Part shown: piece after piece, positions 3,104 to 59,571 of the stretch | How the letters are laid out: every line of letters begins with the position of its first letter | Numbering within the stretch: position 1 is the first letter of the stretch | Assembly (NCBI GenBank): GCA_964016885.1 | Contig: OZ024753.1 | Location: forward strand, 6,138,001 to 6,202,000 | DNA length: 64,000 bases | Reading direction: 5' to 3' | Source: Eledone cirrhosa | Lineage: Eukaryota | Translations under genes and position numbers: made by a program | The notes under the pieces: generated by a model | Seen by the model: only the letters and a program-made list of their open reading frames with translations | Databases searched by the model: none | Told to the model about the DNA's origin: nothing

Positions 3104-3275
3104 ATGAAAAGAGTCAGGACCCCGACGGTTGAGCTCCGTTCGGATCTAGCGAAATGGCCGGAGCTCAGCCGTCGGGGTCCTGAATATTTTCATATTAACC
3201 ACTCTACTGCCTCAAGTATCGAGTACTCTGGTGGGTTATGATCTCTACCTGGTACTCTATTACACCCTATCTTTT
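3104..3275 (+). mobile_element. Penelope-pLTR-like fold-back element, family B
   Basis: Inverted arms TCAGGACCCCGACGG..GAGCTCCG / CGGAGCTCAGCCGTCGGGGTCCTGA, then the family tail AAGTATCGAGTACTCTGGTG; flanked by TA/TG and TATG microsatellite. Confidence 0.7.
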
Positions 3276-4235
3276 ATGTATGTATGTATGTATGTATGTA
3301 TGTATGTATGTATATATATATATATATGTATATATATATGTATATGTATATATGTGTGTGTGTGTGTGTGTTTGTGTGCGCGCGCGCGCACGCACACACA
3401 CAGATAGAAGGCTGATGTGTGGATACATACATGCATATATACACATGGGTTTTTATGTGTGTATGTATACATTTGTAGTATAGTGACATGTCATATATTG
3501 AGATTTGTATTTAATTTACTTTAGAATATATGCGTATATATCAATATTTTTATGAGTGTTTATCGTCTAAGATCAATTTCTTGAAGATATGAGAATAATA
3601 TATTTTATGAATAATTGATGGATTCTTAAATAAACTTCTGAAAGATGAAGGAAACGTGATATGTGATATAATTTAAAAGGTGTTTGTTATTCATTCGACA
3701 GGTGTATTTTCGTTTCGTTATATTTCTAAACAAATGTCTAGAATGACTGAAATTATATGCAAATCGATGTGCAAATAGAGCTAGTAAATATATTCATTAA
3801 AACATACGTTAATCTAGTAACATAAAATATCTTGAAATGAAATAGAAGATACAAAATTTAAAATATTACAAATATTCAAATATATATTAATACACAGATT
3901 TATCAATAGGAACATAACTCAAGTTTCATCTATTTCCTCTTTATCAAGTTTTTTCTACCTAGTTGGAACTCATTTCACTATACTCTACTTATTATATCAA
4001 GTTTTCGCATTAAACATACATATGCTATGTTTGCTATCTCACTTTATATTAATGTATGTCTGAAGATGTTTACTTCTTTGCAACTGTATAGCCCCTTCAC
4101 AAATATACACACAATTTCAAATGAATTGTATAATAAGGAATACGCTTATGGATAATATATGTACGCAGATCTGGCTCAACTAATACAATAGTTTGACATT
4201 ACCGATCAGGCAACAACTTATTATATGCATGTCGG

Positions 4236-4412
4236 TGGATTGGCAGAATTGGCAAAGAGTCGGACACCATGTTTGCAGCATGGTTAAGGCTTTAACCATG
4301 AGTCCAAATTCCGCCGAGGTAAACTTTGCCTTTCATCCTTGCGGGGTCGATAAAATAAAGTAGCAATAATGTACTGGAATCATTGCTGGCCTTGTGCCAA
4401 AAGTAGAAACAA
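4236..4412 (+). mobile_element. tRNA-type SINE, full length
   Basis: Head GGTGGATTGGCAG, B-box-like GAGTCCAAATTCC, core GCCTTTCATCC..GGGGTCGATAAAATAAAG, tail GGCCTTGTGCCAAAAGTAGAAACAATT. Confidence 0.9.
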
Positions 4413-5759
4413 TTGTGTGTGTGTATGTGTATATATATATATATATATATATATATATATATAAATAAAAGCAAAAGAAATCGAAAATGCAACTGGGTCT
4501 TTTTAAGAATATTTATGTTTCCTTTAAAGGTTTCAAGGTTCTTATGCTTTTCAAAAGTAGAATTGAAATGGAGAGTCTCTGGCTTTTCTCGCATATATAT
4601 AAGAATAACATTAAAAAAGATGCTTGTATTACATAAATCGTTTACCGTCTTTCTTAATGTTATTCCTATACTGAATCTCCATCGTAACTACAGATTGCGA
4701 ACGTAAACCTTTCTCCTGTGTTCTCCTGTTTTTACGATAACAAATTTTAATGACTACGCTTAATCATTATACTCTGACACTTCGTTCCTACATATTACTA
4801 ATTATCTATCTACACGCACGCACGCACACTCGCTCGCTCGTTGTTACAGCTCACAACTATGCGGGTTTAGATGGGCTCCTCCAAGGTATATCTCGTTGGA
4901 GGTGTCTTGGGTGATTTAATGATAAGGACCTCAGTTCTATCATCTCATTTCTACAGCTGAGTATATATATATATATATATATAAAATCAGAATGTTATGA
5001 CTCGTCAGAAATATATATATTCATGAAAATCTTGGCTGTTATTAACAAACAAAATTACCAATACATAGAGGTAGGGAGTCAAACTGAGAATAATTGTCGC
5101 AGAATCATTTATTCGAAACCACTTTCTGAACCATATTTCAAAATATTCCGAGTCAGGTACAAGATGACATATACTCTATTGAATATATGTCTTCCTCTGT
5201 CCAAGAGGACGCAATTTTCTCCTCGTCATTGTAATTTTTATTCTAATATGTGATCATCCATTAAACCTGGAAACAATTATGTACGATACGTATGATGCAA
5301 CTCCTAGAGGGAAAATTATATTACGATGGAGAAACAATATTGGCTCAAAATTAACACGAATATATTATCGGGGCATGAACACGTTTTTCTTTTGGGGAAT
5401 ACATAAAAGGACGACCACAAACATTTTACATGGGTTTTTCACGCCCTACCACTGATAATGCACGACTGTTTTTACATATCTTCATAACAGAATGTTGCAG
5501 CAAAATTACATGTTTTACAAATATACAGACACATTTGAGACGATTAAAAGCAGGATTATAGTCAATTTTGTCGGCATTGACTGCTTGTTTAGGATTTGTA
5601 ACTCGTACAAGGATTATTCTCCACACTATATGTACATCACTTATCGTTGATACTTGAATTACCTGTACATGACACGTATTTTAATATGGAAGGCTTGCAG
5701 GTTTCAATCATAGATTATTTTCAAATACATAACTCATGCAACACCTATATATTCCTCTA

Positions 5760-56358: not shown

Positions 56359-57010
56359 ATAATTGTTTCTACCTTTGGCACAAGGCCAGCAAATACCCAG
56401 TACATTACTGGTACTTTATTTTATCGACCCCATAAGGATGAAAGGTTTGAGAAGAAATAATTGTTTCTACTTTTGGCACAAGGCCAGCAATTACCCAGTG
56501 CATTACTGGAACTTTATTTCATCGACCCCATGAGGATGAAAGGCAAAGTTAATCTTGGCGGGCTTTGAACTCAGAATGGCAAGGGACGTAACTCTATGCG
56601 TCAAAGCATGGTTTGAGAAGAAATAATGCTAAGTATTCTAGAGAGCATCTCTTAAAATATAACGAAGATTTTCCCAACAACGAGAATACCTTTTCTTATA
56701 TGTGTAGTCCACCAATGGGTACAATGTTATAAATCCAACTGGATATTATTCCTCAATTAAATCACTTCAATTATGGTCAGAAAAAACACTGATATTGACT
56801 GAATAATCACCATAAATCAAGTGTTCAAGCATAAGTCTCCAAACCAAAAATGAAATAGTGGATTGGCAGTATCGGTAGAGGATCGGACCCCATCCTTTGC
56901 AGCAAAATAAAGTTATGTCCTTTTATTGTCTGAGTTCAAATGCCGCCGAGGTTAACTTTATCTTTCATCCTTACGGGGTCGATAAAATAAAGTACCAATA
57001 ATACACTGGG
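56359..57010. mobile_element. tRNA-type SINE copies (two tandem on -, 56359-56610; one on +, 56858-57010)
   Basis: TTTGAGAAGAAATAAT occurs three times around the tandem pair. Confidence 0.85.
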
Positions 57011-58394
57011 ATAAACATAGTGACATTCAGAAAAGGAAGAACTAAAATATAGCAGTTTCCTCCAACACTTCTACATTTCTGCCAATCCATACCACTTGAT
57101 TACTAATGTTTAGAGATGACACACGAATGGAAAACAATGGTTATCACACCGAGACGTGAAATAGGGACAAAGAAGGCTGTTTCAACAACGATGTATGTCT
57201 TAGAACTTTACCATTCTACCACGTCACCAACGTTCTGAAATGTGTGATAGTCTAAATTATGTTACTGGACATCCATAAAGAAACATAACGTATGTTAATA
57301 TAAAAAGCCCTTCAGTATAATATTTCAAGATGGAGAATCCATGTAACCAGATTTTATAGCAAAATGAAGCACAGGGATGAATAAACAGCGACAAAAATTA
57401 ATGGAAGACATTCACTATTGCCACAGCGTTGGGTAAGTTTTAAATAGACGAGATTTTGCTATCATAATCAACCCCAATATCAACGTATATGCACTAGAAT
57501 TTGATATATTCTGCTCCAATTTATGGTTTAAACAGTATATGCGCATTTATACGAACAGCTAACATTTTAAAGTGAGCGAAATCTGCATTCGTCTGGATAT
57601 TAAAGCAATATTATGTACGCCTAAGCTTATAACATGTTTGCCATATAGCTAGTCTTTAGAAATGTCTGACTACGAATACATTATCGCGTTCACGTGTACG
57701 GACATGATATAAGTTTGGAGAATCGAGAACCATATTGAATACAATGAAAGGTACACACAGATATTAGAGATTTTACATAGAAAGGCAGCGTCTCTATAAA
57801 GAGAATATATGAAATCTCTCACGCCGAAATGGAAGCCAACAATAAAATAGCAATATTATTTGATGGCAATAAAACCAAGCCTTATCCCGATAACATATGA
57901 ACGCCCCGAGAGACTCATTGTCCCCAGTTCATTACTGTCTATTGCTAAATCTCACAAAATCTGCGGAATAAAATTGGTAGATATGAATTATATGGGCATT
58001 TCACAAAACATTTCTTAAACATGGAGGATTAAAATTAATATGATATAAACCCAATGTACTAGAGGCTCAATAGATATCGCAACATAGATTGTAGAAATGT
58101 ATTAAAATAAGTGGTTTATTAGATAAATGAACAAATGATTGGGCGAGAATTAAACCGCCTAAAAGCAGCATTAAATACACCGCTAGATATAGAAAACTAT
58201 TTCAAGGGAAAATATGTATTTATAAATATATTAAATATTTAGTGAAGTGAAAGCAGAGGCTAGGTTAACATTGAAACTTAAACTGAAAAAGAAACAGACA
58301 ATATATATATATATATATATATATATATATATATATATATATCTACACGCACACGCACTATTACTCTTTTTCATGTTCCAGCCATCCGGCCGAG

Positions 58395-59102
58395 GTCATG
58401 CTGGGTCACCACCCTTGTTGCTATGCGTTCTATATTCAGCCAGCGTTGGCTTGCCATTGATGTAAGATGAGTTTGTTTTTTGCTGCCCTTAGGTTACTTT
58501 CGTTCCATGTCGGGGGTTCATCTGGGATCCTATATAGCAGACTCTAAAAATGTTTTCAAAAAACATCTACGTCCACACCATACCAATCTCTCAAATTTCT
58601 TGGCCGCTTATTAAAGAGTCGATGGCCTTTAATTCCCAGGCTATTGCAATATCTGCTCCTTATTCTAGATGTGAAAGACATGACCTTTGTTACCATACAG
58701 TGACGTCCTAGTCGGGGGTTGTACTAGCTCTCAATTCCAAGGTTTGGTGCTAGTCTCTCCAAGATCTTCCATATGTATTTCACTGCGTATATCTCCTGCC
58801 TTCGTTTCAAGGAGTAGTTTTAGTTCTTGTAGCCTCTCCCAGAAGTTCATCTCCTTCCTCGTGGCAATATTATTGGTGCAGACTCGTTGGGTTGCTTCAG
58901 GTTCCGTGGTTACTTTGACACTCTGGGGTGACAAAAGCTAGGACCAATAGTCCAGTCGGCTTAAGAAAAATATTCTCCACAGTACCAACAGGGTTTTTTG
59001 GTCGCTTGTCTTCAAAGTCCTCAAGATCCAGCCAGCAAGTCGTTTGTATATTGTCGCCATTTTCATGATCTGTGAATAAAACGATGCATCGTTGCTCAGG
59101 TC
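58395..59102 (-). mobile_element. CR1/L2-group LINE ORF2 fragment
   Basis: GWILRTLKT..LLVLW..SRLDYWS*LLSP..EATQR..T..I..FWERLQELKL. Confidence 0.75.
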
Positions 59103-59571
59103 TATATTATTATTTCTCAACATCGTCAGGGTTCTACTCTACGATGTTGAGAAAGACGGTTTTTAAGCAATAAAACGTGGGTTTTTCACCTTGGTAAAAC
59201 GTATTTGACAAACCAGCAATACGAAATTATATCTATATGTATCTATCGATATAAATGTGTGTGTATATATATAAATGTTATATATATATATATATATATA
59301 TATATATGAGTGTGTGTGTTTATATGTATATATAGAATTGTATGTATTTGTGTATAGAAATGCGTGTATGTATTTATATGTATGTATATATAGAAATGCG
59401 TGTATGTATTTATATGTATGTATATATAGAAATGCGTGTATGTATTTATATGTATGTATATATAGAAATGCGTGTGTGTATTTATATGTATGTATATATA
59501 GAAATGCGTGTGTGTATTTATATGTATGTATATATAGAAATGCGTGTGTATTTATATGTACATATATGTAT

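Follow-up and report, generated by a model that had tools for sequence, protein, structure and literature searches.

Penelope-like elements (PLEs) have already been described with inverted pseudo-long terminal repeats (pLTRs) and tails, as solo pLTRs, and as self-priming at palindromes of the junction, according to the accessible text of three papers (PMC3846280, PMC8557442, PMC4209133), and dispersed single hammerheads, as well as opposite-strand pairs 100–700 bp apart, are noted in what is available of bioRxiv 10.64898/2026.07.22.740005 and PMC4209133. The origin of the inverted ends and tails of PLEs is an open point in this literature. We analysed a stretch of 64,000 nucleotides of Eledone cirrhosa DNA (contig OZ024753.1, positions 6,138,001 to 6,202,000), hereafter the window, in which a preliminary description had distinguished fold-back families A to G and had supposed the hammerhead fold to make reverse transcription stall or self-prime, and so to define a class of non-autonomous fold-back retroelements. 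Our data lead to another reading: the fold-backs of families A–D were probably formed by reverse transcription from two fixed sites of the RNA, over 60–160 nt up to a capped 5' end, the two cDNAs being joined head to head.

Hydra-type elements behind the fold-backs

Masked self-comparison of the window gave fold-backs at 3148, 7284, 16094, 18258, 22244, 30950, 38267 and 39674, and weakly at 59133; those at 21135 and about 51900 are degraded family B fold-backs, the latter with a partly deleted left arm. The fold-backs reported for A–F are present at their places, and those of A, B (3148/22244), C, D, E and F, with self-BLAST E values of 1e-10 to 1e-56, stand far above chance. Outside the window we used a genome sample of 1.2 Mb chosen without regard to content, 100 kb of which adjoins the window, and a second, independent sample of 200 kb only. 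The host genome has 3.0 Gb and abundant TA microsatellites. The 1.2-Mb sample holds 25 elements of A, 50 of B, 34 of C and 12 of D, from which about 3e4–1e5 copies per family are extrapolated (wider figure, 1e4–1e5); the element density is about half as high in the 200-kb sample. The location in (TA)n, also part of the preliminary description, was found again: TA repeats flank both sides of 40 of the 43 short fold-backs in the unbiased sample.

Judged from the open reading frames (ORFs) linked to them in long copies, and for the clade from motifs, families A, B, C and D are the 5' leaders or pLTR ends of Hydra-type PLEs. A long B copy (L095) carries a reverse transcriptase (RT) and GIY-YIG ORF; ORFs are likewise linked to C in L106 and L121, to A in L251, L241, L255 and L244, and to D in L128, there with the endonuclease half only. 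Autonomous GIY-YIG/RT partners with the same end, the search for which had been recommended, thus exist for A, B, C and D. The Pfam matches of these ORFs are weak (RVT_1, E 0.017), and the RT of C has 164 relatives, many with PF26215. The motifs of the Hydra clade are found in B and C for CxCx5C, CxxC and CxH, in C for DKT and RWR, and partially in A and D. The inverted 5' copy with a tail at one end only, a PLE feature, is present too. One C copy extends beyond the tail end to an ATG about 45 nt further, so that the repeated unit would also be the 5' leader of the mRNA. A further ORF, in L243, was considered as the partner of A and rejected, as it belongs to a nested different PLE.

Arm ends, the extra G and the ribozyme motifs

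Positions were numbered family by family on real long copies, +1 being the first base of the 5' cluster. The breakpoints along the pLTR are strongly clustered, not uniformly distributed: the interval −10 to +12, or hot bin, receives 84 inner arm ends per 1509 nt at risk, against 22 per 11823 nt upstream—about 30 times more—and 14 per 1620 nt lie just downstream. Arms ending in the hot bin are 24 of 31 for A, 45 of 59 for B, 14 of 32 for C and 1 of 9 for D; the independent 200 kb gave 4 hot-bin ends versus 2 (ratio 13, p 0.004). The neighbour of the 84 ends is the other arm in 54 cases, a microsatellite in 16 and neither in 14. The outer ends are fixed, each at a TA: the tail-less arm stops at site 1 (A +60 to +73, B +61, C +75, D +70 to +73), the tail at site 2 (A +134, B +139, C +162, D +137).

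Among 76 junctions, a count that took in all loci, search-selected ones included, 71 are distinct, which does not fit descent from a short master like that of a retrozyme or a short interspersed nuclear element (SINE). Microhomology of at least 3 nt occurs at 22 of the 76 (null 3.4%) and insertions at 23; being above chance, it suggests that self-complementary stems may set the exact join. As far as the sequence goes, the fixed outer ends, the tail-only arms and the near-unique junctions favour two RT starts over a re-amplifying class, and since an autonomous ORF with the same end was found in every tested family, the separate non-autonomous class is not supported. Five B copies (L067, L069, L073, L075 and L076), retrieved by a biased query, share one junction, in which an arm reaching +1 is followed by the tail only; this reflects either a microhomology used repeatedly, of which the cap-derived base is part, or the re-amplification of a short master.

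The base before +1 was counted by hand in an exact, genome-wide pattern search for solo copies abutting (AT)4. For A it is G in 54, C in 17, A in 13 and T in none of 84 copies, the templated base being C. Among the matches listed, B shows G54 T31 A9 C6 (100 of 203; templated T/C) and C shows G48 T32 A15 C5 (100 of 185; templated T). A control placed 6 nt further in (A +7) gave G in 1 of 40, and in the genome at large G makes up 6 of 44 and 22 of 152; Fisher tests of the excess of G gave p values of 4e-12, 3e-8 and 3e-11. In another hammerhead family, H, the 5' ends pile up 83 nt upstream of the core, and its distinct copies among the matches listed carry an extra G in 5 cases, A in 2, T in 1 and the templated C in 0, while 8 join directly; its hazard by BLAST mixes subfamilies and was not used.

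In A, B and C a motif resembling the initiator consensus places its A at +1, and a TATA-like box stands at −30 in A and −29 in B. The accessible text of PMC11702581 and PMC4859970 explains an extra G at full-length 5' junctions of L1 and SVA by the mRNA cap having been copied. The axis thus likely follows a capped transcription start, which in A and C would abut hammerhead stem I; the ribozyme would be touched by the axis only where transcription starts at stem I. Families E and F, set aside in the preliminary description because their axis lies further upstream, may then no longer be exceptions, their starts being putative.

Hammerheads were searched with our own descriptor (score at least 11, over all DNA retrieved), which gave 297 matches versus 2 in reversed sequence, and canonical type I cores in A, D and E. 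C folds likewise, with intact stems and 29 descriptor matches, its core being CAGAAGA (U4 to A) in long copies; this fold appears to be high-copy, for example in L106, L153 and L095. The CTGAAGA at 30949 was made by the joining of two C arms. CAGAAGA is not among the core variants in the accessible text of PMC3088659, and we found it neither in the open-access literature nor in the supplement of Craig et al. 2021 (PMC8557442). B retains GAAAC, stem III and GTC, i.e. half of a hammerhead only: there is no CUGANGA core within 300 nt upstream in four long unfolded copies, and no B cluster among the descriptor matches, so that there is no complete ribozyme in which an axis "in stem II" could be placed. 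As for G, it is a 14-bp stem by a LINE-like (long interspersed nuclear element) RT fragment, with a self-BLAST E of 0.007 and no hammerhead fold by the descriptor; all 39 other genome matches stop short of the palindrome, and its membership of the class is not supported. Rfam gave no hammerhead in the best 150 window matches nor in long A, B and D copies; as it misses those found by the descriptor, it is insensitive here and this is not evidence of absence.

The proposed rule that the axis lies within the ribozyme holds, then, for A (with the axis on the first base of stem I or, at 39674, within the core) and for D (in stem II), but not for B, C and G. In other hammerhead families the axes lie at family-specific distances of 35–80 nt upstream of the core, in a survey that requires a complete motif in one arm and misses axes within the core. 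Few ends fall at the 3' strand of stem I, although a polymerase would run into the fold there first when it arrives from the 3' side. The tail motif that had been proposed also stands in part: (T/C)GAG(T/C)(A/G)C is found in the tails of A, B and D, but C has CGAGCCC. Ribozyme cleavage as the main 5' end of A was considered and rejected, the copies spanning the predicted cut site.

A second cluster of 5' ends exists in B at +42, right after GTC (7 of 17 short solo copies among the matches listed); it could be due to cleavage with the core otherwise supplied, or to a stop at a G run. More than 20 distinct hammerhead sequence families occur across all loci retrieved, some with a very long stem II, and L132 (8749–9682) holds a retrozyme-like tandem array with a period of 311 nt.

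Two proposed priming sites and the rival explanations

In the mechanism that we favour for A–D, a promoter of the pLTR would start a capped RNA at +1, as the cap-type G and the initiator and TATA-like motifs suggest, +1 being the first base of stem I in A and C. The RT-endonuclease would cut both strands of (TA)n and prime at sites 1 and 2, in the manner of another PLE in vitro. Most products would stop at −10 to +12, often with an extra G, a pattern that can be seen in the sequence. Near the 5' end, the ribozyme stems and palindromic loops would offer short self-complementary stretches at which the two cDNA ends might then pair, unless the ends were ligated; since same-sense cDNAs anneal only where the RNA is self-complementary, the ribozyme stems may matter at this step. 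The outcome would be two arms and a tail, an arm joined to a tail only, or a solo copy, and long copies with the same outer ends would come from priming at these two sites within the 3' pLTR. The template would be uncleaved RNA, because copies span the predicted cut. Such products recall the strong-stop DNA of retroviruses, here integrated one event at a time.

Two priming events are suggested by the relation between the arms. Comparing the arms of each of 47 sampled fold-backs, we find that the one lacking a tail extends further 5' in 27, that both are equal in 13, and that the tail arm goes further in 7; the second arm is tail-only in 13 fold-backs, and 28 solo copies of the sample end at site 1. 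As a single folded cDNA cannot copy a sequence that it does not contain, these forms fit two primings better. The same holds for one heterologous join (L163, 9575–10000), where a tailed B arm stands head to head with another PLE family and the two are not separated by a TA repeat, as against 137 same-family joins, and for the two internal starts and the extension of both strands shown in vitro for the anole PLE (PMC11167929).

Several observations nevertheless weigh against this mechanism. The 14 hot-bin ends with neither a second arm nor an upstream microsatellite could be alignment ends of diverged subfamilies; the hot bin itself was fixed post hoc, after A and B had been inspected, and the independent sample is small; D has no clear cluster. 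The extra G is not confirmed in the other TA phase (TATATA), where G, with 15 of 89, is not above a (GA)n-rich background, which makes this phase uninformative. C has no TATA at −30, and in A, B and C the +1 position also resembles a 3' splice site (pyrimidine tract and AG). Non-majority variants are often common to both arms (17 shared versus 22 differences in 25 pairs), so that a single RNA, or a single source locus, would usually have given rise to both arms; where the arms overlap fully, this would call for strand displacement or for a pair of RNAs of the one locus, either being hypothetical. Finally, the junction microhomology suits a snap-back equally well. Adenosine-to-inosine editing was also considered as a source of the arm differences and rejected, there being no A>G excess.

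Such a snap-back, in which one cDNA started at site 2 reaches +1, turns back at a microhomology and serves as its own template, before the endonuclease cuts the duplex at site 1 and joins it to (TA)n, would account for the cap G, for the concordant arms and for the microhomology. Self-priming at palindromic PLE junctions has been proposed before (accessible text of PMC3846280), and resolution of the tail by the endonuclease has been suggested (PMC8557442, likewise in its available part). However, tail-only forms would become later deletions of one arm, and extra deletions would also be needed for the tail-less arms that reach further 5', for the tail-less solo copies ending at site 1, and for the heterologous join, and we consider this explanation rather unlikely. 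The stall at the ribozyme fold, which the preliminary description had put forward, could draw on the junctions at or within the motif in A, C and D, on the excess of microhomology and on how common hammerhead motifs are; but the same clustering occurs in B, which has no core, at a site marked by a cap-type G, few ends lie where the polymerase would enter stem I, the axes are well upstream in other families, 83 nt in H, the junctions are nearly all distinct, and G is not a member. This explanation is largely refuted by B and H, and appears very unlikely.

The likeness of +1 to a 3' splice site raises the idea that spliced templates were copied, the extra G stemming from splicing intermediates or from a first exon that was very short; and the intron of Penelope in Drosophila virilis does end at the 5' end of helix I, according to the part of PMC4209133 available. 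The copies, however, retain the AG and in B often 3–5 more upstream bases, while between solo copies and (TA)n there is no more than one extra base, too little for an exon, so we hold this origin to be highly improbable. As for miniature inverted-repeat transposable elements (MITEs) with TA target duplications, they would share the fixed termini, the internal palindrome and the TA on both sides, although the flanks are (TA)n, in which a duplication is unreadable. Against them, the termini are not mutual inverted repeats (4–12 of 25 terminal bases match), the centre varies by copy, long copies run into RT/GIY-YIG ORFs, and the G is of the cap type. ORF links and variable centres refute this reading, which deserves practically no credence, and the preliminary description was right to see PLE retro-insertions here.

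If the two-site mechanism is extended beyond these families, a broader and more tentative proposal, which we would not yet put at even chances, is that PLEs routinely integrate "strong-stop" DNA, by means of a dimeric RT-endonuclease and two leader sites, and that the head-to-head join is the general origin of the inverted pLTR with its tail. Copies numbering in the tens of thousands in each family would then map promoter, cap and RT starts at base resolution. Hydra-type families would appear to thrive with a changed or missing core, with a hint of continued cleavage of the B RNA after GUC despite its lack of the core.

Loci of the window and comparison with known systems

Table 1. Fold-backs, related copies and predicted ribozyme parts, in window positions
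Feature	Position	Strand	Description
Family A fold-back	7215..7420	+	left arm 7215–7283, loop of one base (7284), right arm beginning at +1 (7285), tail as far as 7420; arms 69 nt, 95% alike; (TA)n flanks
Predicted type I hammerhead motif of A	7285..7335	+	stem I 5' strand 7285–7290, CTGATGA 7291–7297, GAAA 7310–7313
A hammerhead, 3' part	GTA 7327–7329, stem I 3' strand 7330–7335	+	cut predicted after GTA; descriptor match on left-arm copy; no Rfam match
Family A fold-back	39551..39731	-	both arms stop at +10 (palindromic TCATGA); core incomplete in each
Family A relative, new here	52110..52195	-	arm +6 to +64 joined to tail-only arm
Family B (older subfamily) fold-back	3106..3275	+	right arm from about +2 (3138)
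Family B (older subfamily) fold-back	21086..21243	+	both arms stop near +5; shortened tail
Family B fold-back	22186..22372	+	left arm +5 to +61, right arm +1 (22243) to +139; no CUGANGA core
Family B fold-back, short left arm	51878..52042	+	right arm from +1 (51903), G just before
Family B solo copy	29466..29563	-	starts at +42, immediately 3' of GTC triplet; in (TA)n
Family C fold-back	30882..31108	+	junction about +4 to +11; left outer end +75, tail end +162
Family D fold-back	38201..38390	+	arms 79% alike, stop at +20 and +11, within stem II of canonical minimal hammerhead
Family D copy, new here	20816..20905	+	inverted arm +11 to +70 joined to tail-only arm +92 to +121
Family E fold-back	15944..16275	+	axis 78 nt upstream of hammerhead core
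Family F fold-back	18160..18482	+	axis some 24 nt upstream of CTGATGA 18282; an old copy with arms 68% alike
"G"	59113..59154	.	14-bp stem, 14-nt loop, end of LINE-like RT fragment

Compared with the axis 78 nt upstream of the core in the E fold-back at 15944..16275, two further E copies have theirs at −74.5 and −81. The LINE-like RT fragment at "G" lies on the minus strand at 58700–59107 and stops at the hairpin. The end of a broken PLE ORF, showing a GIY-YIG-like motif (Pfam E 0.03), occupies 40851–41351, with RT-thumb-like sequence upstream, and a degenerate PLE RT/thumb fragment lies at 30255–30662, about 220 nt upstream of the C fold-back, with a SINE-like repeat between. This repeat of about 190 nt has some 20 copies, 78–90% identical, several in inverted clusters (1–199, 4212–4413, 9288–9480, 12669–12862, 22783–22961, 33059–33741, 35379–36006, 43255–44762 and 56544–57014). 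Young 5' fragments of another element, 92–98% identical, contain a zinc-finger-like ORF start and are each broken by (TA)n (11549–11881, 28554–29123, 46152–46750 and 52839–53395). A 29-nt tandem repeat at 26432–26955, repeated 18 times, includes a stretch common to the family A tail. Against contigs from two other organisms, family B matched 7 contigs, with one 60-nt fold-back at +11, a result too thin to use.

By their C-terminal GIY-YIG, DKT, RW(K/R), CxCx5C linker, CxxC and CxH motifs, their targeting of (TA)n and their inverted 5' copy with the tail at one end, the Eledone elements resemble the Hydra clade as the accessible text of PMC8557442 presents it. In that text canonical hammerheads are said to be universal and tails measure 30–40 nt, whereas here B has no core, C has CAGAAGA, the tails are of 60–90 nt and, unlike in that description, most copies are ends of 130–230 nt. 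A functional parallel is Poseidon, a PLE of the green anole studied in vitro (PMC11167929, in its available part): there too both strands are cut and extended, two internal RT starts bound the tail, the target is AT-rich and uncleaved RNA is the main template. However, the RT starts of Poseidon lie in the ORF, and those considered here before the ATG (shown for C); inverted junctions, a capped 5' end and short genomic products, seen or proposed here for the Eledone elements, do not figure in what is accessible of the Poseidon account.

The Penelope of Adineta vaga shares with our families the inverted pLTR with a tail, the junction palindromes, a TATA and initiator in the pLTR, and solo pLTRs (accessible text of PMC3846280). 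Its authors infer self-priming on an antisense template; the cap-type G found here points instead to a sense, capped template and two primers. A description of twin priming or of a cap-derived G in PLEs was not found in the open-access literature. The cap-type G inside and the two fixed outer ends offer a testable answer, different from the published antisense self-priming, to the question of how these ends arise, and promoters and RT start sites might be read from the genome sequence alone. There is also a warning in it: very common short palindromes may be a PLE by-product, and not a MITE or a microRNA hairpin.

Non-LTR retrozymes, in the available parts of bioRxiv 10.64898/2026.07.22.740005 and PMC4209133, are likewise short, non-coding, PLE-related and provided with type I hammerheads; but they form head-to-tail tandems and are presumed to pass through circular RNA, while our copies are arranged head to head, uncleaved, and each produced by an event of its own. 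Head-to-tail units each with a complete hammerhead were not seen in our families, which show only short tandems of solo copies, and rarely. Twin priming of L1, for its part, resembles our case in that both target ends prime RT, inversion junctions have microhomology and full-length copies have the extra G; according to the accessible text of PMC11702581 and PMC4859970, the second primer sites of L1 are variable and the arms hardly overlap, whereas here both sites are fixed and the overlap is often full. Altogether, the pattern of the Eledone fold-backs would be a variant of known PLE biology, and what is new is its reading as integrated run-off cDNAs, putatively bounded by two RT starts and a cap.

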